A stretch of DNA of 64,000 nucleotides, taken from contig CAXSZN010000013.1 of the NCBI GenBank assembly GCA_964241935.1, positions 5,133 through 69,132 on the forward strand, read 5' to 3'. Source of the DNA: an uncultured Armatimonadales bacterium (GTDB lineage: Bacteria > Armatimonadota > Armatimonadia > Armatimonadales > Capsulimonadaceae). Each line of letters begins with the position of its first letter. Position 1 is the first letter of the stretch. The position numbers and the translations under genes were made by a program. Below, piece by piece: positions 23,043 to 39,699 of the stretch. Under the pieces are notes generated by a model that was not told where the DNA came from, searched no databases, and saw only the letters and a list, made by a program, of their open reading frames with translations.

Positions 23043-23127
23043 AAAATCATTATAGAGAGGCAAAGAAAAGCGACCTGCGCCAATGCCGGCAAGGTCGCAA
23101 AACACGCAATTATGAAACGAAATCAGA

Positions 23128-23200
23128 TGCACCCGGAGCGATTTGAACGCCCGACCGATCGCTCCGAAGGCGATTGCTCTATCCACTGAGCTACGAGTGC
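23128..23200 (-). tRNA. tRNA-Arg (anticodon UCG)
   Basis: Hand-folded cloverleaf: acceptor GCACTCG/CGGGTGC, D arm GCTC-AGTGGATA-GAGC, anticodon stem ATCGC/GCGAT with loop CTTCGGA, and T arm GGGCG-TTCAAAT-CGCTC. Confidence 0.85.
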
Positions 23201-23320
23201 AACAGGGAAAGTGTACCCGCTGGGACATCAGAAGTCAAGGCAGAGCGCGGGTTTCAGACGGGCAGCATTCAGGTACAAACGGGAGGTCTAAAACTACTTT
23301 TCTCTTGAAAGAAGCTGTAT

Positions 23321-24376: not shown

Positions 24377-24380
24377 GAAG

Positions 24381-24474
24381 CCCCCCAGCCCCCAATCATG
24401 GGGGAGCATGATTAAGATGCGAATGCCGCTTGTGTCGTCTCTATATTGCTCCCCCATGATTGGGGGCTGGGGGG
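24381..24474. repeat. palindromic element, family A copy 2
   Basis: CCCCCCAGCCCCCAATCATGGGGGAGC / GCTCCCCCATGATTGGGGGCTGGGGGG. Confidence 0.85.
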
Positions 24475-24478
24475 CTTC

Positions 24479-26050
24479 CTACTTCGCCCTTAACAATCCG
24501 TACTCGATGCTGTCTACGACCGCGTGCCAGGAGGCGTCAATGATGTTGGTGGAAACGCCGATGGTAGACCAGGTTTCTTCGGCATCGGCGCTGTCCACCA
24601 CGGTGCGAACTTTGGCCGCCGTGCCTTCTTTGACATTGACAACACGCACTTTGAAGTCGGTTAATCTGATCTCGGCAAGCTCCGGGTAATGCGGCATCAG
24701 CGCGAGGCGCAGGGCGCTATCCAGAGCATTGACCGGACCGTCGCCTTCCGCCACAGTCAGCATTTCCTGGCCGCCGACCCGCAGCTTCAGCGTCGCTTCC
24801 GTGATTGGCTCGTTGTCGTAGGAGCGTTTCTCGACAATGACCCGGTAGCCGATGAGGTCAAACAGCCGCCGGTAGCTGCCCGTGGCTTTTTTCACCAACA
24901 GCTCAAATGACGCTTCCGCGCCTTCAAACGAATAGCCTTGATGCTCCAGCGCCGTGACCTGCATCAAGATTTCTTTGGTTTCCGGGCTGTCCTTTCGCAG
25001 ATCCAAGCCCCGCTTCTGAGCCTTTTCCAGAATGGTGGACGCGCCCGAAAGCTCGGAAATTAAGATGCGGTTCTCGTTGCCGACCAGCGCCGGGTTCAGG
25101 TGGATATACGTCTCCGGGTTCTTCCGCATGGCGTCCACATGCAGCCCGCCTTTGTGGGCGAACGCCGAGCGCCCGACATACGCCGCCGACGCTTTCGGCG
25201 GGATATTGGCGATCTCGTCCAAATAATTCGACAGCTCCGACAGCTCCGTTAAGTGTACCGCACAGTTTAACTCATACCCCAGCTTCAGCGCAAGCGACGG
25301 CATGATACTAGTCAAATTGGCGTTGCCGGTGCGCTCCCCCAGCCCATTGATCGTCCCCTGCACCTGCCGGCAGCCGCTTTGGATACCGACCAGGCTGTTC
25401 GCGACCCCGCACTCGGTATCGTTGTGCGTGTGGATAGCAAACTTGCCTTTTGAAAATCTTTTTACGACTTCGCCGACAATCACTTCAATTTCACTCGGCA
25501 GTGTCCCGCCGTTGGTGTCGCACAGCGCAACGCAGTCCACGCCCACCGAGAGCGCCGCGTCTAAGCATTGTGCTGCATACTCACGGCTGCGCTTCCAGCC
25601 GTCAAAGAAATGCTCGGCGTCATAAATGACTTCCTTGCCGTGTGCTTTGTAGAACGTCACCGTGTCGGCAATCATCGCCAAGTTTTCTTCCAGCGGCAGG
25701 CGCAGGGCTTCGATGACATGAAAATCCCAGGCTTTCCCCACAAACGTCACCACGGGCGTTCCGGCGTCCAGAAGCTGCTGCAAGTTCGGATCGTCTTCGG
25801 CGCGACGGTGAGGCCGCCGGGTCGAGCCGAACGCGGCAAGCTTGGCGTGGTTAAGCTTCACGGCCTTCATGCGCTCAAAAAACTCAATGTCTTTCGGGTT
25901 CGATCCCGGCCAGCCGCCTTCAATATAGTCAATGCCAAAGGCGTCCAGACGCTTGGCGATGCGGATTTTGTCTTCCACGCTGAAAGAAATCCCCTCGCCC
26001 TGCGAGCCGTCCCGCAGCGTCGTATCATAAATGTCAATTCGTGTGTTCAT
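24479..26050 (-). CDS. cimA: citramalate synthase / LeuA-related (R)-citramalate synthase
   Basis: IYDTTLRDGSQGEGISFS, a HMGL-like barrel, and a C-terminal LeuA-dimer-type regulatory domain. It is the last gene of the ilv-leu block. Confidence 0.75.
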   Translation of the reverse strand: MNTRIDIYDTTLRDGSQGEGISFSVEDKIRIAKRLDAFGIDYIEGGWPGSNPKDIEFFERMKAVKLNHAKLAAFGSTRRPHRRAEDDPNLQQLLDAGTPVVTFVGKAWDFHVIEALRLPLEENLAMIADTVTFYKAHGKEVIYDAEHFFDGWKRSREYAAQCLDAALSVGVDCVALCDTNGGTLPSEIEVIVGEVVKRFSKGKFAIHTHNDTECGVANSLVGIQSGCRQVQGTINGLGERTGNANLTSIMPSLALKLGYELNCAVHLTELSELSNYLDEIANIPPKASAAYVGRSAFAHKGGLHVDAMRKNPETYIHLNPALVGNENRILISELSGASTILEKAQKRGLDLRKDSPETKEILMQVTALEHQGYSFEGAEASFELLVKKATGSYRRLFDLIGYRVIVEKRSYDNEPITEATLKLRVGGQEMLTVAEGDGPVNALDSALRLALMPHYPELAEIRLTDFKVRVVNVKEGTAAKVRTVVDSADAEETWSTIGVSTNIIDASWHAVVDSIEYGLLRAK

Positions 26051-26054
26051 AGTT

Positions 26055-26462
26055 TTAGAGATCGAAGTCTAAAGGATACTTGTTTGGCAGATATGAACGA
26101 AGTTCAGAAAGGTCGCTTGCCCATCGTAAAACAAGACTAGCCAGCTCATCTTCGGAAGCTACATGAAATCGCTCGTTTATAGTCGGCTTGAGATCATCAA
26201 TAGCTTCGCTGTACCAGAGATCAATTTTCTCTGTTTCAATCTCGATGTGGTTTACTTTGAAGCCAGCAAGTATGTTCTCTTCGACATATACTCGACGCGA
26301 AGTTTGACTGACTTCGTCCCACTCCACAAGTTCCGGGTCAACCTGTGGCCTGATAACAACAAGCGCCGTGTGTTCCGGGAGCGCTGGAGTCACCTCGGCA
26401 GTCACTTCACCTGCCAACCTGAGCTGGTTAAGAATTTTGAGCGGGAACATAGGCTGGTCCAT
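26055..26462 (-). CDS. hypothetical protein, AT-richer orphan inserted between leuB and cimA
   Basis: About 135 aa (MDQPMFPLKILNQL..). The stop is 4 nt before the cimA start. Composition is visibly AT-richer than the neighbours, and I recognised no domain. Confidence 0.55.
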   Translation of the reverse strand: MDQPMFPLKILNQLRLAGEVTAEVTPALPEHTALVVIRPQVDPELVEWDEVSQTSRRVYVEENILAGFKVNHIEIETEKIDLWYSEAIDDLKPTINERFHVASEDELASLVLRWASDLSELRSYLPNKYPLDFDL

Positions 26463-26471
26463 TACAGGAGT

Positions 26472-26565
26472 CCCCCTAGCCCCCAATAATGGGGGAACCG
26501 GATTAAGGTGCGAACGCTGCTTGTGTCATCTCTGTATTGCTCCCCCATGATTGGGGGCTGGGGGG
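26472..26565. repeat. palindromic element, family A copy 3
   Basis: CCCCCTAGCCCCCAATAATGGGGGAAC / GCTCCCCCATGATTGGGGGCTGGGGGG. The internal segment is about 80 percent like copy 2. Confidence 0.85.
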
Positions 26566-26575
26566 CTAAAACTTC

Positions 26576-27685
26576 CTAATCCCGTGGGTCGGTGCCCATT
26601 TTGACTGCGGCGGCAACCAAATCACCCATTTGGCGGCAGTTGACGTGGACGATGTTGGGGGACTCGGCGTAGATGTCGGCGGTGCGGTAGCCGGACTGCA
26701 AGATATGGGCGACGGCGTCTTCAATGCCTTTGGCGGCGTCTTCCGCGCCGAGCGAGTAGCGCAGGAGCAGGGCGCCGGACAAAATGGTCGCCAGCGGGTT
26801 CGCTTTGCCCGTGCCGGCGATGTCCGGGGCGCTGCCGTGGCTCGGCTCGTACAGGCCGAACGTGCCATGTTCGGTCTTCTTTGCGCCGAGCGACGCCGAC
26901 GGCAGCATTCCAAGCGAGCCGGTCAATTGGGCGGCTTCGTCGCTGAGAATGTCGCCGAACAGGTTTTCGGTGACAATCGTGTCAAATGACTGCGGGCGGC
27001 GGACCAAGTCCATTGCAGTCGCGTCAACAAGCTGATGCGACAGCTCGATGTGCGGGTACTCGGCGGCAAGCTGCGTCACGGTTTCGCGCCACAAGCGGGA
27101 CGTTTCCAGGACGTTTGCTTTGTCCACACTGAGCAGCTTGCGCCCGCGCTTTTCCGCCGCTTCAAAGCCGACACGGGCGATGCGCGTGATTTCGTCACGG
27201 GTGTAAACGCAGGTATCCACGGCCCGGTCGCCTTCCCAAAGCTTGGGCTGCCCGAAGTAGAGGCCGCCGGTCAGCTCGCGGACCACTAAGATGTCAAAGC
27301 CGCCTTCCACTAAATCCGGCCGCAGGGGGCAGGCGGCGGCAAGCGACGCATACAGGACGCACGGGCGCAGATTGGCGTACAATTCTAGCTTCTGGCGCAG
27401 AGGCAGCAGCGCCCCGCGCTCCGGGCGCAGGTTGGGGTCCGGGATGGCGTCGTACTGCGGGCCGCCGACCGCGCCGAAGTAGATGGCATCCGAGGCTTCC
27501 GCCAGCGCCAGGGTGTCCGGCGGCAGGGGATGGCCTGTCGCGTCATACGCCGCCCCGCCGACCAGCGCTTCGGTTACTTCCAGGGTCAGGTCGTATTTTC
27601 CCGCCGCTGCGTGCAGGACTTTCAGACCCTCCGCCATGATTTCCGGTCCGATGCCGTCGCCGGCCATGACTGCAATTTTTGCCAT
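26576..27685 (-). CDS. leuB: 3-isopropylmalate dehydrogenase
   Basis: [16 protein letters not shown].., [25 protein letters not shown]. Confidence 0.9.
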
Positions 27686-27720
27686 AATTTGTTTTCCAAT
27701 AATTGAGAAGCCTAACAGGA

Positions 27721-27787
27721 GGCGAACACAAGGTTCGCCCCTACGAGGCAGGTTGGATGATGTAGGGCGCGAACCTCGTGTTCGCCC
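27721..27787. repeat. palindromic element, family C copy 1
   Basis: GGCGAACACAAGGTTCGCCCCTAC ... GTAGGGCGCGAACCTCGTGTTCGCCC. Each arm is a GGCGAAC/GTTCGCC hairpin. Confidence 0.8.
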
Positions 27788-27795
27788 TCTGTACT

Positions 27796-28263
27796 CTATT
27801 CACTCCTCAGCGTCCGCAGAAAGTCGCTGTACCCCATTTTGCGCCAGAATGCCTGCGACGCCGGGTTGGCCCGGACGACCTGCACTTCTACTGCCGTGAT
27901 GCCGCGCGAGACAAACCAGGCTCGCAGGCGGCTGTGAAGCTGGCGCCCCGTGCCCTGCCGCCGCCAGCCGTCCTTGACACAGACATCGGCGATGTAGCCG
28001 CAGTCGCCGGACGAAAGCGTCGGCCGCTGCATGATCTGCCCGAACGTGTAGCCGACCACGCTTTGCTCGTAGGCGGCGACATAAATCGCCATGTTCGGGT
28101 TCTCCAGGTTATCCCGCAGATAGCCGAGAAACCAGTCCGCCGCCTGGGCGTTCAGCGTGAGGCGCGGGTCGTAGGCAGCGTTGATGTCCTGCAAGTCCCG
28201 CCAAAGCGTGATGATGGTCGGCAGGTCCAGCATTTCGGCGGGGCGGATGATGATGTCAGGCAT
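27796..28263 (-). CDS. GNAT family N-acetyltransferase
   Basis: 155 aa with the acetyl-CoA motif [16 protein letters not shown]. Confidence 0.8.
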
Positions 28264-28278
28264 AGAGTTTTAGAAGCA

Positions 28279-28385
28279 CGAGTAGTTGAAAACTGCTCGC
28301 TAGGTTAAGCGTCCTGCGGACGATAAGAACGGTCCTCTGATACCCGACAGGGTACTTCTCCCAGCGAGTAGTTTTCAACTACTCG
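28279..28385. repeat. palindromic element, family B copy 2
   Basis: CGAGTAGTTGAAAACTGCTCGCTAGG ... CCAGCGAGTAGTTTTCAACTACTCG, with the core CGTCCTGCGGACG. Confidence 0.85.
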
Positions 28386-28402
28386 TCTTAATTCGCCCCT
28401 TC

Positions 28403-29974
28403 TCAAACATGCTCTAAAACGCGCTCCGTTTCCGTGCGCCCCCCCGACCGGGCGATCTGCTTGTTCAGCGCCTGCAAGTACGCTTTCGTAGACGCGACAA
28501 AAATGTCCGTGTTCGCTGCGTGGCCGGTGTAAATCATGCCGCCTTCGGCTTTAATGCGAATAGTCACGTCCGCCATCGCGTCAATGCCTTCAGTGACACT
28601 CTGCATGGTGAACTCGATCAGGTCATTCGGGACTTGGACAATGCGGTTAATTGCCCGGTAGATCGAGTCGACAGGGCCGTTGCCGATATCGGCGTCCATG
28701 AGGATAGCTTTGTTGAGATGACGCAGCTTGACGGTGGCTGTCGGAATGGCGTGGTCGCCGCAGGAAACCTGCACCTGCACCAGCTCATAGGTCTGCGGCA
28801 CGGTTGTCAGCTCATCGCCGACAATCGCGTCCAAATCTTCGTCATACACCACTTTTTTGTTGTCGGCCACCAGCAGAAAGCGCGTGTAAACTTTTTCAAA
28901 CTCGTCTTCCGAGGCAAACGTGTGACCAAGCTCAGTTAAGCGATGCCGAACACCGGCCCGGCCTGAGCGGGCCGACAGAATAATCTTGCTTTCGCTGATG
29001 CCGACCGTCTTCGGGTCAATGATCTCATAAGTGGAGCGCTCTTTCAGAACACCGTCCTGATGAATGCCCGACGAATGCGCGAACGCATTAGCCCCGACAA
29101 TCGCTTTGTTGGGCTGGACTAAGATACCCGTCATGGTCGAGACCATGCGCGAGGTCTTATAGATTTCTTCGGTCTTGATGTTCGTAAACAGCTTGTAAAC
29201 ATCGGCGCGGGTATGAAGCGCCATCACGACTTCTTCCAGCGACGTATTCCCGGCCCGCTCGCCGATGCCGTTGACGGTGCATTCCACCTGCCGTGCCCCG
29301 GCTTTGACGGCGGCAAGCGCGTTTGCCGTCGCCATGCCGAGGTCGTTGTGGCAGTGCGCCGACAGCACGATATTCTCGCTGCCGGGAACATGGTTTAAGA
29401 TGCCCGCAAACAGCGCTCCGTATTCTTCCGGCGACATATAGCCTGTTGTGTCGGGGACATTGATCACGGTTGCGCCGGCTTTAATTACCGCTTCAACAAC
29501 CCGGTACAGATATTCCGGCTCGGCTCGCCCGCTGTCTTCCGTGAAGTATTCAATATCCTGGCAGCCGAGTGAACGGGCGTGCTTGACCGCCGCGACGCCG
29601 ATTGCCAGCGCTTCTTCACCGCTCTTTTTGAGCTTGTACTTTAAATGGCTTTCGCTGACGCCCAGCCCGGTATGAATGCGGGGCCGCGCCGCGCCTTTCA
29701 GCGCATCCCACGCGACATCAATGTCGCGCGGCACCGCGCGGGTCAGCCCGCAGACAGTCACGCGGTCGGAGACGGCGGCGGCGACGCGGCGCACGGCCTC
29801 AAAGTCGCCGGGGCTTGAAATCGGGAACCCGGCTTCAATCACGTCCACGCCGAGGCGCTCTAGCTGCCGGGCGATCTCCACTTTCTCGTCAATGTTCAGC
29901 GACGCCCCCGGCGACTGCTCGCCGTCGCGCAGGGTGGTATCAAAGATTTGGACTTGATTGCTATTGGTGTTCAT
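28403..29974 (-). CDS. leuA: 2-isopropylmalate synthase
   Basis: IFDTTLRDGEQSPGASL.., HCHNDLGMATAN, and a C-terminal LeuA allosteric domain. Confidence 0.9.
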   Translation of the reverse strand: MNTNSNQVQIFDTTLRDGEQSPGASLNIDEKVEIARQLERLGVDVIEAGFPISSPGDFEAVRRVAAAVSDRVTVCGLTRAVPRDIDVAWDALKGAARPRIHTGLGVSESHLKYKLKKSGEEALAIGVAAVKHARSLGCQDIEYFTEDSGRAEPEYLYRVVEAVIKAGATVINVPDTTGYMSPEEYGALFAGILNHVPGSENIVLSAHCHNDLGMATANALAAVKAGARQVECTVNGIGERAGNTSLEEVVMALHTRADVYKLFTNIKTEEIYKTSRMVSTMTGILVQPNKAIVGANAFAHSSGIHQDGVLKERSTYEIIDPKTVGISESKIILSARSGRAGVRHRLTELGHTFASEDEFEKVYTRFLLVADNKKVVYDEDLDAIVGDELTTVPQTYELVQVQVSCGDHAIPTATVKLRHLNKAILMDADIGNGPVDSIYRAINRIVQVPNDLIEFTMQSVTEGIDAMADVTIRIKAEGGMIYTGHAANTDIFVASTKAYLQALNKQIARSGGRTETERVLEHV

Positions 29975-29985
29975 AGTTATTCTCG

Positions 29986-30148
29986 GAACCCACCCCGCTC
30001 GTTCCTCGCTTCCCCTCCCGAAGCGGGAAGGGTAGGAGATAGAATTGAAGGCCCGTTACCCTCTTGGCTCTGAACTCTGGCCCTTCCCGTTTATGCTTCG
30101 CATTACTCCGTATCGGGAGGGGAAGCGAGGAATGAGCGGGGTGGGTTC
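29986..30148. repeat. MITE-like element, family D (~36-bp terminal inverted repeats)
   Basis: GAACCCACCCCGCTCGTTCCTCGCTTCCCCTCCCGA ... TCGGGAGGGGAAGCGAGGAATGAGCGGGGTGGGTTC. Confidence 0.85.
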
Positions 30149-30154
30149 TTTTCA

Positions 30155-30922
30155 TTAAATCGCCGGCATGACGTTGCCGCCGCAGACGGGGACATACGCC
30201 CCGGTAATATAGCTCGACAAGTCGGATGCCAAGAACGCGACGACGTTGGCAATTTCCTGGTCCGTGCCTCGCCGTCCTAATGGCACCGACTTTTCATAGT
30301 CTGGCTGCGCTTCCGACCCCGAGGCCCGGTCATTGTCGCTAATGGTCCAGCCCGGCGCAACTTGATTGACCGTAATGCCGTGCGTCCCGACTTCCTTTGC
30401 CAAGATACGCAGGACGCCGTCCATGCCGCGCTTGCCGGAAACATATGCCGACTGTGTTGGAAAGTTCTGCATGGCGCACTCGGTATTGATACCGATAACG
30501 CGCCCGCCATGTCCCGCCTCAATCATGCCCGGCACAAACGCCTGCGCCATCAGGACATTATGCAGAACGCAGCTCTGGAACTGGCTTTCGTAGGCTTCCG
30601 GCGACTGCTCCAGGACACTCTTCCAGGGCGATGAGATGACCGCGTTGTTGACGATAATATCTGCCGTGCCTAAACTCTGCACGACCGCATCCCGCAGCGC
30701 AAGAACGCTGGCTTTGTCCGAGACATCGGCCTGAACAGTAATTGCTCGCCGCCCTATATTCTCTACTTCAGCTTTCAGCTCCGCCGCTTTGCCTGCGTTC
30801 TGCAAATAGTGAATGGCAACGTCGGCCCCGCATGACGCCAGCGTCCGCACCATGACACGGCCAAGCTGCCCCGTCGCGCCCGTCACCACAGCGATTTTGC
30901 CCGTCAAATCTAATGTCAGCAT
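30155..30922 (-). CDS. SDR family oxidoreductase (FabG-like)
   Basis: VVTGATGQLGRV and YVSGK motifs. It lies inside the ilv-leu block. Confidence 0.8.
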   Translation of the reverse strand: MLTLDLTGKIAVVTGATGQLGRVMVRTLASCGADVAIHYLQNAGKAAELKAEVENIGRRAITVQADVSDKASVLALRDAVVQSLGTADIIVNNAVISSPWKSVLEQSPEAYESQFQSCVLHNVLMAQAFVPGMIEAGHGGRVIGINTECAMQNFPTQSAYVSGKRGMDGVLRILAKEVGTHGITVNQVAPGWTISDNDRASGSEAQPDYEKSVPLGRRGTDQEIANVVAFLASDLSSYITGAYVPVCGGNVMPAI

Positions 30923-30941
30923 TGTGTTACGGCCTTATTAT

Positions 30942-31022
30942 GTAGGGGCGAACCTTGTGTTCGCCCTTCCGCAACAGCGGGCGGATGCCGGAAAGAAGGG
31001 CGAACACAAGGTTCGCCCCTAC
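30942..31022. repeat. palindromic element, family C copy 2
   Basis: GTAGGGGCGAACCTTGTGTTCGCCC ... GGGCGAACACAAGGTTCGCCCCTAC. Confidence 0.85.
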
Positions 31023-31034
31023 CCGGAACAGCCG

Positions 31035-32048
31035 TTAATCGCTTACGGTATCCGGCTTCTTGACCCAGGACATCAGGCCGCGAAGCTGCTTGCCGACGGC
31101 CTCAAGCTGCGACGCGCTATCCAGCGCTGCCAGGGCATTGAACATTGGGCGATTGGCCTTGTTTTCCAAAATCCAGTCGCGGGCGAACTGCCCGGTCTGG
31201 ATTTCTTTGAGAATCTTGACCATCTCGGCTTTCGTGGCATCGTTGACAATGCGCGGGCCGCGCGTCATGTCCCCGTACTGGGCGGTGTCCGAGATCGAGT
31301 AGCGCATTCCTGCAATGCCGGCCTCGTACAGCAAATCCACAATTAGCTTCAGCTCATGCAGGCACTCAAAATAGGCAATCTCCGGCTGATAGCCGGCATT
31401 GACCAGGGTTTCAAAACCGGCCTTGACCAGCGCCGTCGTGCCGCCGCACAGGACCACCTGCTCGCCGAACAAGTCCGTTTCGGTTTCTTCCTTGAACGTC
31501 GTCTCTAGTACCCCCGCCCGGCTGCCGCCGATGCCTTTGGCCCACGCCAGCGCGATATTCTTGGCGTTCCCTGTAGCGTCCTGCGCGACCGCGATCAAGC
31601 ACGGGACACCTTTGCCTTCAGTATACGTCCGGCGGACCAGATGCCCCGGCCCTTTCGGCGCGGTCATAAACACGTCCACGCCGTCTTTGAGCGGAATTTG
31701 CCCAAAGTGGATATTGAAGCCGTGGCCGAACGCCAGCGCGTTGCCGGGTTCTAAATTGGGCGCGATGCTTTCCTTGTAGACATCGCCCTGAAACTCATCG
31801 TTGATAAGCATCATCACCACATCCGCTTCTTTCGCAGCTTCTTCGACCGACTTCACCGTAAGCCCCACTTCCTCCGCCTGCGCCCAGCGCTTCGAGCCGG
31901 GCCGCAGCCCCACGCGCACATCCATCCCGCTGTCCCGCAGGTTCAGCGCATGGGCGTGACCCTGCGAGCCGTACCCAATCACGGCAAGCTTCTTGCCCTC
32001 TAAAAACCCCAAATCGGCATCAGTGTCGTAATAAACCTTCGCGGCCAT
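31035..32048 (-). CDS. ilvC: ketol-acid reductoisomerase
   Basis: [20 protein letters not shown].. and a class I KARI length of 337 aa. Confidence 0.9.
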
Positions 32049-32075
32049 GTGTTTGTGTGTCTCCTCGTGTCGTTA

Positions 32076-32783
32076 TTAATCTAAATCAAGAACTTCCCAA
32101 TCTAGGGAAAAGAGTTGCGCTGTTTCCCGCAACACCTCTTGGCTGCGTGCGCCTATCCAAATCCACCGATAGCCGTCTTCTGAGGCTTCAGTCTCGATTA
32201 GAACATCATTGCCACCGTAGAGACGTGAGATAGAAACAGGCCAGTGCCATTCAGGAAAACCGAGCAGCACGAAATTTTGTTCTACTATTGTCAGTGTATC
32301 GCTGTTCGCCGAAGAATTGTCGCCAAACTTTCCACCAAAGCAAGCAGTTTCTAAAATGACCATTTGCGTGATAAACTCGGAGAGCGTCTGGTTCTCAATT
32401 GTGCCGGTCTCATCAAGATATACAGGCGGGTCATCCAGATTGAGATCACTTACGAGTACGCCCCAGTTCACGACTGCCTGGTTTTCTGTGTAGAAGCATA
32501 AAACCCTTGCGCCGTCTTCCTCTTGGGTGTACAAGCGATCCGGTGAGCGCAGGAAGTTCTGAGCGGCTGTTATATCTTTGCGCTTGCCGGCAAGCTGATA
32601 CCATTCCCGCAAAGCAAGCGGCAGCTTCAGCCCAAGCCGTTTCTCCGCCGCATCGAGTTCCGCCGCTGAGTAGCCGTCGCCTGGCTTTAAGGGACTGTGC
32701 CACTCGGCGATGAAGTCTTGGAGTAGCGACCAGCGATCTTTGCGAGTAGACAGCCGGTCGGCGAACTCGTGCGGGTTGAACAT
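32076..32783 (-). CDS. SMI1/KNR4 (SUKH-1) family protein, immunity-protein-like
   Basis: ELDAAEKRLGLKLPLALREWYQLAGKR is the classic SMI1/KNR4 N-terminal signature. Composition is AT-richer. Confidence 0.7.
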   Translation of the reverse strand: MFNPHEFADRLSTRKDRWSLLQDFIAEWHSPLKPGDGYSAAELDAAEKRLGLKLPLALREWYQLAGKRKDITAAQNFLRSPDRLYTQEEDGARVLCFYTENQAVVNWGVLVSDLNLDDPPVYLDETGTIENQTLSEFITQMVILETACFGGKFGDNSSANSDTLTIVEQNFVLLGFPEWHWPVSISRLYGGNDVLIETEASEDGYRWIWIGARSQEVLRETAQLFSLDWEVLDLD

Positions 32784-32795
32784 GGCGAACGGCTC

Positions 32796-33056
32796 CTAAT
32801 CGCCGGGCAGGTTCGGCACCAGCAGAACCTTTAAATGTTTCTCAGCTTCAATGTCTTCTGCCACTTGTTCCATGAGGTCGCGGTAGTCACGCAGGCGGAT
32901 GTCCGGCGGCTCAGGAGTGACGACTACATACCACCAGTCGCCTTCATGCTGCGCTCCGAGACGGGAAACATTCAAGCGATAGTCTTTTGGCTGATGCCGG
33001 TCAACATATTCCTCAACAATGTTCAATGTCTCGTTCATAGTTTCCGTTTCGCTCAT
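32796..33056 (-). CDS. small acidic hypothetical protein (86 aa)
   Basis: Start chosen at MSETETMNE. It overlaps the HEPN gene 3' end by 44 nt. I recognised no domain. Confidence 0.5.
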   Translation of the reverse strand: MSETETMNETLNIVEEYVDRHQPKDYRLNVSRLGAQHEGDWWYVVVTPEPPDIRLRDYRDLMEQVAEDIEAEKHLKVLLVPNLPGD

Positions 33057-33435
33057 ACAGGCACCCCAGGTAGTTGAAAATCTTTTTCGCCGCAAGGTAT
33101 GAGTCCCGACAGCTTTGTTTGTCAACGCGGATCAGCGAGTAGTCGGCGGCAAGGCGATCTAAATATAACGCCGTAACAAGCGCCGTCAGGTTGTTCAGAC
33201 GACCCGCGCTCATGTGCATAAAGTAGGCACGGTTCAGCCGGGGCAGTTCATTATGTCCGGGTGTGTTGCGGCCATCACGGAAAGCCGGCCTTGCACCGCG
33301 CCGGATTAGCTCATATGTCAGCACTGAGAACGCCGCGTAGTAAAACCGGCTTGTCGCGTTCCGGTCATAGCCGCCGTCGTATAGCGTAACTGCCGCCCGA
33401 AAGTTGTCAGCGCCGATCTCCTGCCACGTTGCCAC
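33013..33435 (-). CDS. HEPN domain protein (Rx4H motif present)
   Basis: AGGAGG, 5 nt, then GTG at 33435. SRFYYAAFSVL, RNTPGH (Rx4H) and DRLAADY match the canonical HEPN (PF05168-type) pattern. Confidence 0.7.
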   Translation of the reverse strand: MATWQEIGADNFRAAVTLYDGGYDRNATSRFYYAAFSVLTYELIRRGARPAFRDGRNTPGHNELPRLNRAYFMHMSAGRLNNLTALVTALYLDRLAADYSLIRVDKQSCRDSYLAAKKIFNYLGCLYERNGNYERDIEHC

Positions 33436-33757
33436 TGTCTCCTCCTTGAACGCCCCCTTGAGGCATCTGCTTCCGGGCCGTGTAAACGCCCGCGCCGATG
33501 CCTGCGGCAATGCCAATCAGCACAAACAAGCCCAAGTTGACCAGCAGGTTCTTGACGGTGTCTAAACCCAGATGGTCTGTGATGGCGTTGTAGACGGTCC
33601 AAAGCGCATAATTGCCGACGCCCGCAGCGATGCCGATTGCCAACCCAAGCGGCAGGCGCTTGGCGGCGTACCCCCAGGCCAGGCCAATCAGCGGAGCGAG
33701 TATCAGAACGCACAGCATGAGCAGGTGCGCTTGGTGCGGGTCAATCAGCTCTTTCAT
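33407..33757 (-). CDS. small integral membrane protein (about 3 TM segments)
   Basis: 116 aa with hydrophobic segments LLMLCVLILAPLIGLAWGY, LAIGIAAGVGNYALW and LGLFVLIGIAAGIGAGVY. The ATG lies 3 nt after the ilvN stop, and the 3' end overlaps the HEPN start. Confidence 0.6.
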   Translation of the reverse strand: MKELIDPHQAHLLMLCVLILAPLIGLAWGYAAKRLPLGLAIGIAAGVGNYALWTVYNAITDHLGLDTVKNLLVNLGLFVLIGIAAGIGAGVYTARKQMPQGGVQGGDSGNVAGDRR

Positions 33758-33760
33758 CGG

Positions 33761-34264
33761 CTAAATCCCGCGAACGCCCCGCGCCATGGCGATCCGCCCG
33801 GTGCGGACCAGCTCCCGGATGCCGTAAGGCTCCAGCAGCTTTTCGAACGCATCTATTTTGTCGTTCGCGCCGGTCAGCTCAATCACAAATGTTTTCTCGG
33901 ACATATCAATCACCCGGCCCCGAAACACTTCGACAAGCTGCAAAAGCGCCGTTCGGTTCTCGACCAAAGCATTGACTTTAATCAACGCCAGCTCGCGGGC
34001 GATAATCGGGATATTAATATAGTCCTGGACTTTAGACACTTCAATCAGCTTATGCAACTGCTTGGTGATCTGCTCCACTTCCCCCTCGTCACCGTTGACC
34101 ACCAAAGTCATGCGCGACAATTCCGGGTTCTCGGTGATCGAAACCGCGAGAGACTCGATATTGTAGCCCCGGCGCGAGAACAGCCCGGACACGCGCGAAA
34201 GCACGCCCGGCTTGTTGTCCACTAAAACTGTGATTGTATGCTGCTGGCCTGAAATCTGCTGCAA
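33761..34264 (-). CDS. ilvN: acetolactate synthase small (regulatory) subunit
   Basis: HTITVLVDNKPGVLSRVSGLFSRRGYNIESL, an ACT domain, 167 aa. Confidence 0.9.
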   Translation of the reverse strand: MQQISGQQHTITVLVDNKPGVLSRVSGLFSRRGYNIESLAVSITENPELSRMTLVVNGDEGEVEQITKQLHKLIEVSKVQDYINIPIIARELALIKVNALVENRTALLQLVEVFRGRVIDMSEKTFVIELTGANDKIDAFEKLLEPYGIRELVRTGRIAMARGVRGI

Positions 34265-34278
34265 AGCGCCTTTGCTCC

Positions 34279-34641
34279 TTAACTGTTGCCTGGAACGGGC
34301 AAACCCAGAATGCTGGCGATGCCTTGCTCCACTTGCGAGAAATCCTTGTCGGTCATTTTGCCAAGCACACGCTCGACATCACGCTGATCTACCATTCCCA
34401 GGTAGCCGCGAACTGCGGAGGGCTTGAGTAATCCGGCAGTCTGCCATTCTCCCAAAGTCGTATCCCCTGGACGAAACGGTGCATTCAAATTGCTGGTGAT
34501 CGCCGCGACGACAATTTTAATGCCTGATCTATTGAATGCTTCCGTGCTGAGAACCACGGCAGGACGCTTCTTGCCGCCGGGTCCATCCGTAAAAGGCATC
34601 TCGACTAAGAGAATATCGCCGCGCTGGTAATACTGCCTCAT
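34279..34641 (-). CDS. mazF: MazF/PemK family type II toxin (endoribonuclease)
   Basis: RGDILLVEMPF..KKRPAVVLS..VVAAITSN is a PemK-like fold signature. It overlaps the upstream antitoxin gene by 4 nt. Confidence 0.75.
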   Translation of the reverse strand: MRQYYQRGDILLVEMPFTDGPGGKKRPAVVLSTEAFNRSGIKIVVAAITSNLNAPFRPGDTTLGEWQTAGLLKPSAVRGYLGMVDQRDVERVLGKMTDKDFSQVEQGIASILGLPVPGNS

Positions 34642-34871
34642 AGGTTATCGTACACCGCGTCAGAATCGTTATCCCAAATTTCCCAAAGTGAGCGGTACGA
34701 AAGAGCCTGCCAATCTGCCAGCAGTGCGTGCTCCACGTCTTCTTCACGCTGCCGAGCGGAGAAAGCTTCCAGCGCGAGCGTTGCAACCAGCTCTCGTTCT
34801 TGCCCGCGCTTCTGCGCTTCTTCTTCCAGCCATGCCTCCGTTTCCGGCGAAATGTCAATCGTCATTGTCAT
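34638..34871 (-). CDS. type II antitoxin partner of MazF
   Basis: 77-aa acidic protein immediately upstream of, and overlapping, mazF. The assignment is positional. Confidence 0.6.
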   Translation of the reverse strand: MTMTIDISPETEAWLEEEAQKRGQERELVATLALEAFSARQREEDVEHALLADWQALSYRSLWEIWDNDSDAVYDNL

Positions 34872-35015
34872 GGTTTACCTCAAAAGTTGCGGTCATAGCT
34901 ACATCAGTTTGTTTATACAGCGCAGTACCTCATCACGGTTCTTGGCAATCTTCATCCACTTCGGCAAGTACCGAGCTAGGCCCGTGTTCGGGTAAGAGCA
35001 TTCATCTCGCAAATC

Positions 35016-35049
35016 CGCTTCAATGTAACGCTTCAATGTAACGCTTCAA
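35016..35049. repeat. 13-bp tandem duplication (cgcttcaatgtaa x2 plus a partial third unit)
   Basis: Units at 35016-35028 and 35029-35041, with a partial unit at 35042-35049. The length is not a multiple of 3. Confidence 0.9.
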
Positions 35050-35391
35050 GTACGCCAAGTGAGGCCGATTGTAGGCCCATAAAGTTTCACCGCAGCAAGG
35101 CATCTGAAACCAGAGTGGCAGGTTGAAATACCAGTCCGTAGGACTACCGTAGGCATATCCATCTGTCTTAAGGTCTTTGATGTGACCACAGTGGCGGCAA
35201 ATCAGACGCGCGTAGCAAATCACGCCATGTAAACGATACGGCCCGGATGCCTCCCGCTGGGAGAAGTTATGGGCAAACTTAGGCTCAATCTTGCGAACGG
35301 TAGCACAACTGCTGCAAACAGGGCAGCGGACGAAGAACACATCGGCAAAGGTGTGGAGATGCTCCCCCATGTTTTGGAACTGGGTCGTCAT
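35020..35391 (-). CDS. zinc-ribbon (CxxC..CxxC) hypothetical protein, apparently truncated by a 13-bp tandem duplication
   Basis: CPVCSSC and CRHCGH pairs. Deleting one 13-nt repeat unit extends the frame 38 codons to a TAG at 34901-34899. Confidence 0.55.
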   Translation of the reverse strand: MTTQFQNMGEHLHTFADVFFVRCPVCSSCATVRKIEPKFAHNFSQREASGPYRLHGVICYARLICRHCGHIKDLKTDGYAYGSPTDWYFNLPLWFQMPCCGETLWAYNRPHLAYLKRYIEALH

Positions 35392-35414
35392 TGTTCCTCC
35401 GATGCGGCCTTACA

Positions 35415-37220
35415 CTACCCCAGCGCTTCCTGGCCGGCGTAGGCGGGGATGCGCTCGGTTTTTTCGTCTTCATGGGCGGGGCGGGTGTCTTCGTCGTCCA
35501 TGTAAACTTCGCTCGCCATGTAGCTGTCGAGCGGGACCATGCCTTCGGGGCGGGAGACGACCATTTGGGAGATGGTGCCGCCGCTTGGGATCATGGGGTA
35601 GACGTTTTCTTCTTTGGCAATGCGGAAGTCAATCACGGTTGGGCGGTCGGTGATGGACATGGCTTCTTCTAAAGTCGCCCGCACGGCGGACGGCTGGGAG
35701 CAGCGGATGCCGTGGGCGCCGTAAGCTTCGGCGAGCTTCAGGAAGTCCGGGGACGCCTCTAAATCCACGCTGGAATAGTGCGAGTCCCAGAACAATTCCT
35801 GCCACTGGCGGACCATGCCGAGGTAAGTGTTGTTTAAGATGCAGATTTTAATCGGCAATTTGTAGATGGTCGCCACCATCAGCTCCTGAATGCACATCTG
35901 GATCGAGCCGTCGCCGGAAACGCAGAAGACCGGCGTGTCCGGCGAGCCGAACTGTGCGCCGATGGACGCCGGCAGGCCGAAGCCCATCGTGCCGAGGCCG
36001 CCGGAAGTCACAAACTGGCGCGGACGCAGGCACTTGTAGAACTGGGCCGCCCACATCTGGTGCTGGCCGACATCGGTCACGACAATGCCGTTGTGGTCGG
36101 CCACTTCCCCGATCTGCTCGATCACATACTGGCCGTGCAGGATACCGTCGGCGGGATAATGCAGCGGAAAGTCAGCCTTCCACTGCTGGACCCGCGCCAC
36201 CCACTCCGGGTGCTTTTTCGCGTCAACCACTTTCAGCAGCTCGGTTAAAACCGCTTTGACATCGCCGACAATTGGCACATCAGCGGGCAGAACTTTGCCG
36301 ATCTCGGCGGGGTCTACGTCAATATGAATAATTTTGGCGCTTGGCACCCACGAGTCCACTTTGCCGGTCACGCGGTCATCAAAGCGGGCGCCGACCGCGA
36401 TCAGCAAATCGCACTCGGAAACGGCGTAGTTGGAGTAGGCCGTACCGTGCATTCCGAGCATTCCCAGTGACAGGGCGTGAGTTTCCGGGAACGCGCCCAG
36501 CCCTTTGAGCGTAGTCGCGACCGGAATATCGGTCATCTCGGCTAAAGCCCGAATCTCTTCGTAAGCGCCCGAATAGATCGCGCCGCCGCCGACGTATAAC
36601 AGAGGCCGCTCGGCTTCGCCCATCAGCTCCGCCGCCCTCTGGATCTGGCGCGAATGGCCTTTCACCGTCGGCTTGAAGCTGGGGATGGAGACTTCTTCGA
36701 CGGGCGTGTAGTCAAACTCAGCCCGCAGAATGTCCTGCGGGATGTCCACCAGCACCGGGCCGGGCCGTCCTGAGCGGGCGATATGGAACGCTTCAGCAAT
36801 AATGCCGGGCAGCTTCTCAACATCTTTGATCAGCCAGTTATGCTTGGTGATCGGCATGGTAATGCCTGTAATGTCGGCTTCCTGGAATGCATCCGTGCCG
36901 ATCAAGTTCGTCTTGACCTGCCCCGTAATGGCGACAATCGGAACCGAGTCCATCATGGCGTCGGCAATCGGCGTCACTAAATTGGTCGCACCCGGCCCGG
37001 AAGTCGCCAGACAGACACCGACTTTGCCGGTCGCCAGCGCGTAGCCTTCGGCCATGTGGCCTGCGCCCTGCTCATGGCGAACTAAGATGTGCCGGATGTC
37101 CGGGAACTGGTACAGCGTGTCATACAGCGGGATGACGGCCCCGCCGGGATAGCCAAAAATCGTATCAACGCCTTCGCGCTTGAGGCATTCTAAGAGTGCG
37201 CGGCTGCCGGTCATTTTCAT
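35415..37220 (-). CDS. ilvB: acetolactate synthase large (catalytic) subunit
   Basis: MKMTGSRALLECLKREGVDTIFGYPGGAV.. and the ThDP motif GGLGTMGFGLPA. Start at 37220 or 37214. Confidence 0.9.
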   Translation of the reverse strand: MKMTGSRALLECLKREGVDTIFGYPGGAVIPLYDTLYQFPDIRHILVRHEQGAGHMAEGYALATGKVGVCLATSGPGATNLVTPIADAMMDSVPIVAITGQVKTNLIGTDAFQEADITGITMPITKHNWLIKDVEKLPGIIAEAFHIARSGRPGPVLVDIPQDILRAEFDYTPVEEVSIPSFKPTVKGHSRQIQRAAELMGEAERPLLYVGGGAIYSGAYEEIRALAEMTDIPVATTLKGLGAFPETHALSLGMLGMHGTAYSNYAVSECDLLIAVGARFDDRVTGKVDSWVPSAKIIHIDVDPAEIGKVLPADVPIVGDVKAVLTELLKVVDAKKHPEWVARVQQWKADFPLHYPADGILHGQYVIEQIGEVADHNGIVVTDVGQHQMWAAQFYKCLRPRQFVTSGGLGTMGFGLPASIGAQFGSPDTPVFCVSGDGSIQMCIQELMVATIYKLPIKICILNNTYLGMVRQWQELFWDSHYSSVDLEASPDFLKLAEAYGAHGIRCSQPSAVRATLEEAMSITDRPTVIDFRIAKEENVYPMIPSGGTISQMVVSRPEGMVPLDSYMASEVYMDDEDTRPAHEDEKTERIPAYAGQEALG

Positions 37221-37254
37221 TGTCAAGTCCTTCCAGTTACTTTTACCTTTAAAT

Positions 37255-37312
37255 TCAAAAAAGCCTCTCGTCACACAGTTGCCCGGAGGCAAGGGACGAG
37301 AGGCTCTTTTTG
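37255..37312 (-). terminator. intrinsic terminator of the T-box leader (attenuator)
   Basis: The minus strand reads AAAAAGAGCCUCUCGUC..(inner UUGCC/GGCAA stem)..GACGAGAGGCUUUUUU, about 40 nt before the ilvB start. Confidence 0.85.
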
Positions 37313-37553
37313 AAAAGCTTCACGCGGTACCACCCTTGTTCGGTTCAAGACCTCTTCGCTGAGGCGATAAACCGCACTTGGAGCGCGATTACGGGCGCGA
37401 ACCGGAGTATCTTAATATCTTACGAGTTCAGACACTCTGCTCAGAGGGGAGAGAGCGAAACGCTTGCTGCCGTCTCGCACCAGGCGACGGCTCTCTGAAA
37501 GTAAACCTGTTCGGACATTGTCCTCGTCAATGCAGTTAGATTATTTTGTTGTG
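37255..37553 (-). promoter_or_regulatory. T-box riboswitch leader of the ilv-leu operon, probably Leu-specific
   Basis: The conserved T-box sequence AACAAGGGTGGTACCGCG lies at plus 37323-37335 (cgcggtaccaccc). AGAGAG and GGTGCGA stem-I-type motifs are present. An alternative antiterminator is possible, with AAGAGGUCUU pairing AAGAGCCUCU of the terminator 5' arm. The candidate specifier is GAA-CUC-G. Confidence 0.85.
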
Positions 37554-37559
37554 CCGCGA

Positions 37560-37588
37560 ATTATACCTGTATTCAAGCAGGGTGTCAA
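37560..37588 (-). promoter_or_regulatory. consensus sigma-70 promoter of the ilv-leu operon
   Basis: The minus strand reads TTGACA (37588-37583), a 17-nt spacer, then TATAAT (37565-37560). Confidence 0.8.
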
Positions 37589-37606
37589 GGCTTTGCCACT
37601 ATCTTT

Positions 37607-38074
37607 TCAACTGATCTTGGCTTGCGTTAAACTTTTTCGGCGCGGAGCGGCAGTTGCATCAATTCTCAAGCTGACCACGCCATCTTCAATTCTAGTTGTA
37701 TCCGGCAGATTCAGTTCGGCAAGTTTGTTACAAACATGCTCTGCTGCCGAGATTAATTCCCAAATAAAATCTTGCCTCGGCACAGTCCATACTGTTTCCA
37801 GTTCAAGGGCCGAAATGAAGAGGCTATCGTCGATTGACCGCAGGGTGAGCGAATAAGGACCGTCCATGAAGTCAAGCTCGATCTCATTAGCTCCTGTCAA
37901 TAGATCTTTTGCCGCTCTCAACCACCAACCCAACACGACTGTGCCAAAATCCTCCCAGCCCTCAACAGGATAAAACTCTTTATTGTGAGTCCAGTAGATT
38001 ATAAAGAGCGGGCTGGCGTTGCGCCGGGCATAGGTTTCCATCAAACCTTCATCAAAACTTAGGTTTAATCTCAT
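37607..38074 (-). CDS. hypothetical protein, putative immunity partner of the upstream toxin-like gene
   Basis: 155 aa, AT-richer, starting 28 nt downstream of the toxin-like ORF. I recognised no domain. Confidence 0.5.
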   Translation of the reverse strand: MRLNLSFDEGLMETYARRNASPLFIIYWTHNKEFYPVEGWEDFGTVVLGWWLRAAKDLLTGANEIELDFMDGPYSLTLRSIDDSLFISALELETVWTVPRQDFIWELISAAEHVCNKLAELNLPDTTRIEDGVVSLRIDATAAPRRKSLTQAKIS

Positions 38075-38102
38075 TTCACTACCTCAATCGGATAAGCAGT
38101 TT

Positions 38103-38390
38103 CTACCACTTTGTCTGCGTATTGAACCAGAACTCGATTGTTCTACCGCCCAAAACATCTTTCCCGCGATATTTGATACGTTCCGCTCCTGAAAAATCTT
38201 TCTGCGTCTTGATTTTCTCCCTTAGCTTCCATGCAGCTTGAACAGTAGCTTTGACTTGGTCATCGGTAAGTCCAGCGAAAATATCCTTTTTACCGCTTTG
38301 CCGCGCGATTAGTCCAGTATCCGAGTGAGCCTCCAAGATGTGTTCCCAATCAAAACCAAGAGCAGCAGGGCCGCGAAAATCATCAGTCAT
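38103..38390 (-). CDS. stand-alone toxin-like domain resembling bacterial EndoU-type nucleases
   Basis: 95 aa. The pattern WEHILEAH..SGKKDIF..DDQV..RIKYRGKD..GRTIEFWFN recalls the HIL..H ... K..F ... Y.G...G..I pattern of polymorphic-toxin EndoU C-termini. This is from memory and unverified. Confidence 0.4.
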   Translation of the reverse strand: MTDDFRGPAALGFDWEHILEAHSDTGLIARQSGKKDIFAGLTDDQVKATVQAAWKLREKIKTQKDFSGAERIKYRGKDVLGGRTIEFWFNTQTKW

Positions 38391-38399
38391 AGATTAGCC

Positions 38400-39203: not shown

Positions 39204-39227
39204 GGTTTTTCCTTTGTGGTGGAAGCG

Positions 39228-39683: not shown

Positions 39684-39699
39684 GTTGTTTTATCCTTGT

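Follow-up and report, generated by a model that had tools for sequence, protein, structure and literature searches.

The window analysed here is a 64,000-nucleotide (nt) stretch of contig CAXSZN010000013.1 from an uncultured Armatimonadales bacterium (Armatimonadota; Capsulimonadaceae). Its minus strand carries, at positions 24479–37588, an operon for branched-chain amino acid synthesis (ilv-leu). The original prediction, made from the sequence alone, was that of an ilv-leu operon under a leucine T-box, in which toxin, immunity and unknown genes are inserted in the operon direction at nearly all gene junctions, and this description is borne out. Pfam and NCBIfam searches support the predicted gene order and the identities of ilvB, ilvN, ilvC, leuA, leuB, cimA, SDR, GNAT, MazF and SMI1. 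The features are listed below in the order in which the minus strand reads; amino acid lengths (aa), isoelectric points (pI) and the GC content at third codon positions (GC3) are given where they are used later, and MITE denotes a miniature inverted-repeat transposable element.

37560–37588, minus strand: sigma-70-type promoter, TTGACA-17-TATAAT, a 12/12 match to the consensus
37257–37539, minus strand: T-box leader with Stem I, Leu specifier CUC (37451–37449), T-box motif and intrinsic terminator
35415–37220, minus strand: ilvB, acetolactate synthase large subunit (Pfam TPP_enzyme N, M and C; TIGR00118, 824 bits against a cut-off of 538; GC3 0.76)
34899–35391, minus strand: Zn-ribbon-like cargo gene, frameshifted, with two CxxC pairs
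34638–34871, minus strand: antitoxin of the MazF pair, 77 aa, pI 4.1, the reading frame overlapping that of mazF by 4 nt (ATGA)
34279–34641, minus strand: mazF, MazF/PemK-family toxin (PF02452, 1.8e-14, 54.3 bits against a cut-off of 23.1, profile positions 1–109 of 109)
33761–34264, minus strand: ilvN, acetohydroxyacid synthase (AHAS) small subunit (ALS_ss_C, ACT_AHAS_ss; GC3 0.73)
33407–33757, minus strand: small membrane protein (memb) with two strong hydrophobic segments and a weaker third; GC3 0.72
33013–33435, minus strand: HEPN-domain protein, basic (pI 9.0), with a GTG start and a Shine-Dalgarno sequence AAGGAGG inside the 3′ end of memb
32796–33056, minus strand: acidic partner of HEPN, 86 aa, pI 4.6
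32076–32783, minus strand: SMI1/KNR4 (SUKH-1) immunity-type protein (PF09346, 27.7 bits against a cut-off of 25.4)
31035–32048, minus strand: ilvC (KARI_N, KARI_C)
30945–31019, minus strand: MITE C copy, inverted arms GGGGCGAACCTTGTGTTCGCCC
30155–30922, minus strand: SDR oxidoreductase (adh_short_C2, 5.5e-45; GC3 0.69)
29986–30148, minus strand: MITE D, 41-nt arms that are 93% complementary, seen once
28403–29974, minus strand: leuA (NF002086, 749 bits against a cut-off of 532)
28273–28385, minus strand: MITE B, further copies at 21111–21231 and 53720–53857
27796–28263, minus strand: GNAT acetyltransferase (Acetyltransf_1; GC3 0.85)
27720–27787, minus strand: second copy of MITE C
26576–27685, minus strand: leuB (Iso_dh, 1e-130)
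26467–26568, minus strand: MITE A, further copies at 24367–24488, 10459–10557 and 49330–49461
26055–26462, minus strand: "orphan" gene, 135 aa acidic protein, GC3 0.47
24479–26050, minus strand: cimA, citramalate synthase, the final gene of the operon (TIGR00977, 718 bits against a cut-off of 450)
24367–24488, minus strand: MITE A copy where the operon ends, with cimA on one side and a convergent ADH gene on the other

The junction distances that had been given are exact on recomputation, i.e. 23 nt from ilvB to the Zn-ribbon gene, 14 nt from mazF to ilvN, 3 nt from ilvN to memb and 27 nt from SMI1 to ilvC. The spacing of 4 nt between the "orphan" and cimA and the overlap of 44 nt between the HEPN gene and that of its acidic partner are likewise reproduced, and the noted overlap of memb with the HEPN gene is 29 nt. 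The sole "large" gap read previously among the promoter-proximal cargo junctions, an apparent spacer of 148 nt between the Zn-ribbon gene and the antitoxin gene, consists of 39 C-terminal Zn-ribbon codons that are out of frame; the true gap is 27 nt. The frameshift is a 13-nt tandem duplication (GAAGCGTTACATT present twice) at positions 35047–35022 of the minus strand. Removal of one repeat copy restores the Zn-ribbon open reading frame (ORF), which is then identical to its homologue P0084 at 152 of 161 positions. An independent gene caller, applied to a separate Logan assembly that is identical to the window, returns the same genes from the antitoxin gene to ilvC, eight in all, and these calls include the 140 aa HEPN and 86 aa acidic ORFs as well as the overlaps. 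The start of ilvB is probably the ATG at position 37220, behind the Shine-Dalgarno sequence GGAAGGA, and not an upstream TTG. The IlvC sequence displays 93% identity with that of an uncultured Armatimonadales metagenome-assembled genome (MAG), 82% with that of another Armatimonadetes MAG and 73% with that of a Chthonomonadaceae MAG, which assigns the window to Armatimonadota.

The leader matches the Rfam T-box model RF00230 at positions 37539–37289 over the full model (1–219), with a score of 89.9 bits (E = 5e-20) that is just below the Rfam gathering score of 93. The T-box motif AGGGTGGTACCGCG at positions 37336–37323 is the conserved 14-nt T-box sequence. The leader terminator (37306–37257) has a 12-bp stem, of which 11 pairs are Watson-Crick and one is G·U, followed by a T6 tail. 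Its 5′ arm overlaps the antiterminator partner CTCGTCCCTT, thus terminator and antiterminator are mutually exclusive. Leaders ahead of ilvB in seven relatives score 100–124 bits, which is over the gathering score, and display the canonical GAA-(N)-CUC specifier; the CUC is unchanged in all 22 aligned leaders. The GAA S-turn 5′ of the specifier reads CUCU in the window (37440–37460), is variable in the close clade and is canonical in deeper relatives. The slightly sub-threshold score of the window is due to this degeneracy of the S-turn in the close clade. One T-box motif is found ahead of ilvB in 38 of 42 loci and no other is present within those 20-kb loci, and the promoter is found at the equivalent site in two relatives (12/12 in locus L083, 11/12 in locus L099). 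The Leu T-box is thus a long-standing feature of this operon. The literature was searched and gave no account of a T-box operon in Armatimonadetes, i.e. in this phylum.

A metagenome scan with an alignment of memb gave 79 further loci, from which about 60 informative operons were obtained with IlvB identities of 61%–96%. In deep relatives (IlvB 61–77%) the distance from ilvB to ilvN is mostly 59–264 nt, with three loci having one extra gene there, the distance from memb to ilvC is 48–282 nt, and that from ilvC to leuA is 44–97 nt in most. The corresponding distances in the close clade are 105–2780, 57–2762 and 50–1755 nt, and each junction holds 0–3 cassettes. The near-universal adjacency of ilvB and ilvN elsewhere, which had been asserted, is confirmed by 77 loci of other phyla, where the gap is at most 175 nt, with one locus at 420 nt; beside these the Armatimonadota gap is about 1000–2500 nt. 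As a control, the ilvN to ilvC gaps in 77 ilvC loci of other phyla are at most 263 nt. The phenomenon is real, lineage-wide and more structured than the first reading of the sequence.

Junction ORFs were chosen by a home-made amino acid log-odds score, for which the backbone genes served as the training set and genes with Pfam support as the validation set. Picking ORFs by length was rejected and replaced by this score, as 114 of 353 "genes" were antisense and represent shadow ORFs of high-GC DNA. The census gives 192 cargo ORFs in 24 close-clade loci and 185 of these are co-oriented with the operon (at least 96%). In all 19 multi-member cargo families every copy is co-oriented, and no family is found at more than one junction; independent gene calls agree. 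The cargo at each junction is as follows.

ilvB to ilvN: modular antitoxins of the RHH/AbrB type (29 copies) with MazF (9) or PIN (8); SUKH; Mrr-type restriction endonucleases; Zn-ribbon
ilvN to memb: occasionally a 573 aa TPR protein or a glyoxalase
memb to ilvC: one to three tandem pairs of HEPN and acidic partner, with or without SMI1
distal junctions: SDR, methyltransferase, PNPOx, epimerase, NMO, PhyH, P-II, HAD, ankyrin and unknown proteins

Locus L165, from a long contig, displays at positions 2656–6002 an 865 aa GH3 glycosidase with PA14 and Fn3 domains, together with a methyltransferase, both co-oriented between ilvB and ilvN. Thus even very large genes are tolerated at this site.

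The Zn-ribbon gene is named from its CxxC motifs and has no family match in Pfam, NCBIfam or PADLOC. Its homologues form 19 clusters among 5.8 billion proteins, all of 161–165 aa, and every context examined is between ilvB and ilvN. The antitoxin of the window also has no match in the same three databases, and weak ParD/RHH matches are found in 6 of 20 members of its family; the 29 family copies are all at the ilvB to ilvN junction. In 20 homologues the C-terminal type of the antitoxin tracks the toxin, i.e. WDNDxDAVYDxL is found with MazF and DLAHQHDHYxHGTPKR with PIN. The junction antitoxins are mosaic; their N-terminal DNA-binding part is of two types (MTMTIDISPE... and MLxxKG...) and their C-terminal part of three (L099, positions 6536–9251; L083, positions 5905–7678). 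MazF has a pI of 9.1 beside the acidic antitoxin, which is the charge pattern of toxin-antitoxin pairs.

At the memb to ilvC junction, PF05168 is detected in 18 of 19 members of the HEPN family (best 1e-11). The HEPN protein of the window is below the cut-off (17.2 bits against 22, E = 0.0058, profile positions 3–114 of 117). Alignment of the family displays the invariant residues YRSxxSRFYYA, TPxH and LYxxRxxADY. The putative Rx4-6H motif is R-N-T-P-G-H in the window; the H is invariant, and about half of the members have Q, L or G in place of the R. A peptide "FKEE" that is conserved ahead of each HEPN start is the AAGGAGG Shine-Dalgarno sequence read in another frame. A search of PDB sequences with the family profile gave a single weak HEPN match (E = 2.8).

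The acidic partner always follows HEPN, in one to three tandem pairs. Its family is of 82–101 aa and comprises 83 clusters among the 5.8 billion proteins, all unnamed, and three divergent members on contigs of 0.86–5.3 Mb are all located between ilvN/memb and ilvC. Profile searches of Pfam, NCBIfam, PADLOC and PDB gave no match, including none to NTP_transf_2/MNT. An AlphaFold2 (AF2) model has a mean confidence (pLDDT) of 91 and an alpha-beta-beta-alpha-beta order. Foldseek found no significant match to the model, the best being weak KH-like ones (Era, S3, NusA; TM-score about 0.5–0.58), and no fold is assigned. The pI values of 9.0 and 4.6 for HEPN and its partner again display the charge pattern of toxin-antitoxin pairs. 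The acidic partner represents a new family and is a candidate antitoxin to a putative HEPN toxin.

SMI1 is found at the memb to ilvC junction in nine loci, and related junction SUKH proteins in L001 and L110 score 40–47 bits. The neighbours of SMI1 are the HEPN partner and ilvC, and no toxin with a secretion or delivery domain is present in the operon.

Three of the extra genes differ from this cargo. The membrane protein memb is located between ilvN and ilvC in about 60 Armatimonadota loci, which is essentially every locus, with identities down to 35%. It carries the motif LW..YNA.TD..GLDTV.N, and Pfam, NCBIfam and PADLOC searches gave no family match. It is an ancient, lineage-specific, built-in member of the branched-chain amino acid operon. 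GNAT is found at the leuA to leuB junction in 17 loci. SDR is restricted to a subclade, where it is 85–91% identical in eight close loci, an identity similar to that of the backbone genes.

The GC3 values of the backbone genes ilvB, ilvN, ilvC, leuA, leuB and cimA are 0.71–0.79, whereas those of the Zn-ribbon, antitoxin, MazF, HEPN, acidic partner, SMI1 and "orphan" genes are 0.47–0.64. The earlier impression that the inserts are AT-rich thus holds for the variable cargo and fails for memb (0.72), GNAT (0.85) and SDR (0.69). The same division applies to the proposed invasion of the junctions. It stands for the toxin and immunity cargo, which is variable among relatives, missing in deeper ones and low in GC3. 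It does not stand for memb and GNAT, which are lineage-wide, or for SDR, which is subclade-wide; all three have backbone composition, and this combination was named in the original prediction as the mark of an arrangement that did not arise by invasion. The three are fixed operon members and not invaders. An ancient fixed arrangement is accepted for these three and is rejected as an explanation of the toxin-type cargo. The view of the cargo as generic mobile DNA is likewise not supported, in that the Zn-ribbon, acidic-partner and "orphan" families are tiny and are at the same operon junction in every context examined.

The 135 aa acidic protein ahead of cimA had been described as an orphan, which is not the case. 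It has 15 homologue clusters among the 5.8e9 proteins and belongs to a small family fixed at the leuB–cimA position; the diverged homologues P0116 and P0110 are also between leuB and cimA. Pfam, NCBIfam and PADLOC gave no match. In many relatives the same slot contains a P-II (GlnB-like) gene, in 11 close loci and in deep ones too (e.g. L002, positions 14486–14824; L163, positions 13565–13903). In the window P-II is replaced there by the "orphan" family plus a MITE.

Comparison of the cargo genes with their nearest alleles shows purifying selection. For the antitoxin, MazF, HEPN, acidic partner, SMI1 and Zn-ribbon genes, nonsynonymous differences (pN 0.08–0.31) are far below synonymous ones (pS 0.5–0.94), e.g. 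pN is 0.105 and pS is 0.725 for MazF against the L091 allele. The backbone genes display the same pattern. The cargo thus encodes functional proteins, with occasional decay, such as the Zn-ribbon frameshift of the window and a 40 aa SMI1 remnant in L001. A Shine-Dalgarno sequence is present ahead of each individual cargo gene.

The similarity of the cargo between loci does not follow that of the backbone. The window and L001 have IlvB proteins that are 96% identical, yet their antitoxins are 36% and their MazF proteins 46% identical; with L091 the values are 84% for IlvB, 84% for the antitoxin and 86% for MazF. Footprints of recombination are found in several relatives. L099 has three copies of a segment made up of the ribosome-binding site and about 22 codons of ilvN, i.e. 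there are two duplicates, with 95–100% identity, and an antitoxin-toxin cassette begins about 25 nt after each of the first two ilvN 5′ copies. Other stubs are a single ilvN 5′ copy in L087, a 62-nt ilvB 3′ segment ahead of the Zn-ribbon gene in L084 and an ilvC 5′ segment between two HEPN pairs in L099. In the window and the relatives whose operon genes were scanned, with the exception of L161, the cassettes come with no integrase, transposase or attC-like repeat. In L161 (positions 7343–12716; 5.3-Mb contig) the operon is being destroyed: transposases of the IS1 and IS4 types and antisense ORFs occupy the stretch from memb to leuA, the KARI_N and KARI_C parts of ilvC are in separate ORFs, and of leuA the dimerisation domain is left. 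This insertion sequence invasion is clearly secondary, in a decaying operon.

A trivial origin of the arrangement in assembly or binning, i.e. chimeric contigs of unrelated fragments, is so improbable that it can be set aside. Most of the comparison loci are metagenome assemblies and repeats such as MITEs and stubs could mislead assemblers, but dozens of independent contigs, assembled in different projects, display the same architecture, among them closed or long ones of 0.86–5.3 Mb. The Logan reassembly is identical to the window, and the reading frames overlap cleanly at the junctions.

The stated lack of internal promoters and terminators was checked by consensus scans of the window, L083 and L099, and none that is convincing was found. 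On the sense strand there is no internal promoter of at least 10/12, the sole strong one (11–12/12) being ahead of the T-box, and terminator-like sites are fewer than in shuffled sequence. Ahead of the antitoxin-mazF pair, where the intergenic space is 27 nt, there is no consensus promoter, although weak promoters could escape such a scan. Because the downstream genes ilvN, ilvC, leuA and leuB have no recognisable promoters, readthrough of the cargo is the parsimonious expectation, and the cargo would be co-transcribed with the operon.

It is conceivable that the cassettes, or at least the toxin-antitoxin pairs, have weak or autoregulated promoters of their own and that the backbone has internal promoters as well. 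Co-orientation would then result merely from selection against transcription in the antisense or head-on sense, and control of the cargo by the T-box would not be meaningful. Type II toxin-antitoxin pairs normally own autoregulated promoters, and promoter-like sites of 9/12 lie inside ilvN (34044–34016) and HEPN (33189–33162). Such sites, however, occur at or near the rate of shuffled sequence (11 found against 6.7 ± 2.7 expected), and with gaps of 3–27 nt and overlaps of 4–44 nt there is no room for non-coding DNA. Ahead of the antitoxin genes no palindromic operator that is conserved was noticed, and the stacked cassettes begin about 25 nt past an ilvN stub. MITEs may bear outward promoters or partial terminators, and many sigma factors have been reported for Armatimonadota (PMC4959169). 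On balance independent expression is considered unlikely.

The four MITE families that had been proposed, A to D, are confirmed as inverted-repeat elements, with arms of 41–64 nt that are 78–93% complementary. MITEs A and B have 3–4 copies in the window, also outside the operon; MITE C has two, both inside the operon, and MITE D has one. Beyond the T-box, an Rfam search of the operon interior gave merely spurious miRNA-like matches on MITE hairpins.

The explanation that appears probable, and that is favored here, is that the accessory genes are promoterless cassettes, exchanged via recombination anchored in the flanking genes and co-transcribed with the T-box-gated operon. The base would be a conserved ilvB-ilvN-memb-ilvC-leuA-GNAT-leuB-cimA operon with one sigma-70 promoter and one Leu (CUC) T-box attenuator. 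In one clade the intergenic junctions would have become accretion sites for cassettes that have no mobility genes of their own and may be acquired, stacked, exchanged and lost through recombination for which the conserved flanking genes are the anchors. The likely route would be allelic exchange between strains, together with one-sided, homology-facilitated illegitimate joins. Anchoring in the flanking genes would explain why each family is locked to one junction and why ilvN 5′, ilvB 3′ and ilvC 5′ stubs are present between stacked cassettes. Survivors would be co-oriented and free of terminators because the downstream ilvN, ilvC and leu genes must still be transcribed. Addictive toxin-antitoxin pairs would aid retention of the cassettes. 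The cargo would be read through from the operon promoter, with an mRNA level that follows tRNA-Leu charging. A wiring of the cargo to leucine starvation is thus plausible at the level of transcription, with no obvious adaptive value. Since toxin and antitoxin would rise together, activation of a toxin does not follow from readthrough alone.

Several points weigh against this explanation. The case for co-transcription is that simple consensus scans find no internal signals, and such scans miss elements that are weak, non-sigma-70 or Rho-dependent. A -10-like TATAAA is located 46 nt 5′ of the antitoxin start. The MITE hairpins between ilvC, SDR, leuA, GNAT and leuB could attenuate or process the mRNA, and the MITE C hairpin is followed by TTCTTT. 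The T-box of the window is just under the Rfam threshold with a degenerate GAA S-turn in its clade, and the stub footprints are in relatives, the window itself having none. The census is based on a home-made coding score and includes seven singleton antisense ORFs. The loci are phylogenetically non-independent and many are from one metagenome project (JAABU*), and the counts therefore overstate independent events.

A more pointed proposal is that the wiring is adaptive, MazF, PIN and HEPN having been placed under control of the Leu T-box in order that the toxin dose increases with uncharged tRNA-Leu. The result would be growth arrest, mRNA turnover or abortive infection in starvation, similar to a stringent response. 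The E. coli mazEF pair, which is located downstream of relA and is ppGpp-responsive, is a point in its favor. The toxin-type cargo is concentrated at the promoter-proximal ilvB to ilvN and memb to ilvC junctions, with metabolic genes distal; the cargo is under purifying selection, and the HEPN/acidic-partner family is essentially restricted to this operon. However, the copy number is 0–3, whole cassettes are present or absent among near-identical backbones, and the clade members L095, L101 and L111 have an uninterrupted ilvB–ilvN. Toxin and antitoxin would be co-transcribed, and readthrough by itself would free no toxin. Decay is ongoing, as in the Zn-ribbon frameshift and the SMI1 remnant, and non-toxin cargo (methyltransferase, GH3, TPR protein) is found at the same sites. 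Adaptive recruitment is judged quite unlikely.

In a bolder form of the cassette explanation, the locus would be a recombinase-free, integron-like platform in which the operon genes serve as homology arms, the promoter and Leu T-box are the sole driver, toxin-antitoxin dosage is set by tRNA-Leu charging and the cassettes form a locus-locked, strain-variable pool. This is put forward tentatively and must be considered rather doubtful. As in integron and superintegron arrays, short co-oriented and apparently promoterless cassettes, including toxin-antitoxin pairs, are stacked, vary in presence among strains and are presumably served by one upstream promoter. Unlike integrons, the locus has no integrase or attC-like repeats, the boundaries are stubs of housekeeping genes, each family is locked to one junction and the array is inside an essential-type biosynthetic operon. 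An integron proper is rejected, as no IntI-type recombinase is found among the scanned operon genes of the window and relatives, and no attC.

The base operon is similar to the ilv-leu operon of Bacillus subtilis (ilvBHC-leuABCD) in having a sigma-70-type promoter, a CUC Leu T-box and a terminator/antiterminator, followed by ilvB-ilvN(H)-ilvC-leuA-leuB. It differs in that it is found in Armatimonadota, has no leuCD, has cimA appended and has memb and GNAT built in; its junctions hold variable toxin and immunity cargo, and the AHAS subunit genes are >1 kb apart. The variable accessory genes between conserved homology arms resemble core-gene-flanked hotspots, defence islands and the orphan modules of contact-dependent inhibition (CDI) and Rhs systems. 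In orphan cdiA-CT/cdiI arrays, successive acquisitions leave truncated copies of the conserved flank. The present case differs from hotspots and CDI/Rhs modules in being intra-operonic, at several junctions of one housekeeping unit, and the stubs come from ilvN, ilvB and ilvC and not from a toxin gene. The cargo pairs are similar to HEPN-MNT type II/VII modules and MazEF in combining a basic PF05168 HEPN or PemK/MazF toxin with a small acidic partner in overlapping frames. Unlike HEPN-MNT modules, the HEPN partner is not a minimal nucleotidyltransferase (MNT) but an unclassified 82–101 aa protein encoded downstream, and the Rx4-6H arginine is not conserved. A literature search gave nothing directly relevant on toxin-antitoxin pairs inside biosynthetic operons.

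Insertion into an existing operon is known to bring ORFan and foreign genes under a native promoter (Price, Arkin & Alm 2006; PMC1480536). In that work internal operon insertions were much rarer than appending or prepending, and the mechanism was called unclear. The Armatimonadota loci depart from this pattern, with repeated internal insertions at up to six junctions and visible recombination footprints. Armatimonadota have been noted for unusual genome organisation (PMC4959169).

These loci provide a natural series from which the mechanism of operon insertion can be read, with dozens of alleles, junctions that hold 0–3 cassettes and joins that are marked by stubs of the flanking genes. They indicate that toxin-antitoxin and defence genes can be located between two subunits of one enzyme without destruction of the operon. 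One RNA sensor of tRNA-Leu charging probably sets the transcription of three classes of RNase toxin, and the long-debated link between amino acid starvation and toxin-antitoxin systems becomes directly testable at this locus. Further additions are an ilv-leu regulon of Armatimonadota that is under a T-box, a new family of HEPN partners and several tiny protein families that are locked in position.

A further pair of genes is located outside the noted operon, between a gene for a conserved secreted protein (38400–39203) and the ilvB promoter:

37607–38390, minus strand: basic 95 aa protein (pI 9.0, GC3 0.45) and acidic 155 aa protein (pI 4.7, GC3 0.49)

L085, L087, L099 and L102 carry the pair, L083 has part of it, and L001, L089 and L091 lack it. 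Neither protein has a family match in Pfam, NCBIfam or PADLOC. The pair looks like another toxin-immunity-type cassette and belongs to the same cargo phenomenon.

Farther upstream, positions 39228–40515 of the minus strand encode a 271 aa endonuclease/exonuclease/phosphatase (EEP) protein (PF03372, 1.6e-9, GC3 0.57) and a 151 aa unknown protein (GC3 0.41). The low-GC3 genes of the 64-kb window are concentrated at 26055–40515, i.e. in the operon and this co-oriented upstream string.

Two features are at a distance from the operon. Positions 1762–2241 contain two direct copies of a unit of roughly 210 nt, 265 nt from start to start, which are intergenic and display 76–92% identity. A tRNA gene at 23128–23200 of the minus strand extends over the 5′ end of the ABC-F ATPase gene as given by its longest ORF call (21243–23228), and the true start of the ABC-F gene must therefore be downstream of the tRNA.

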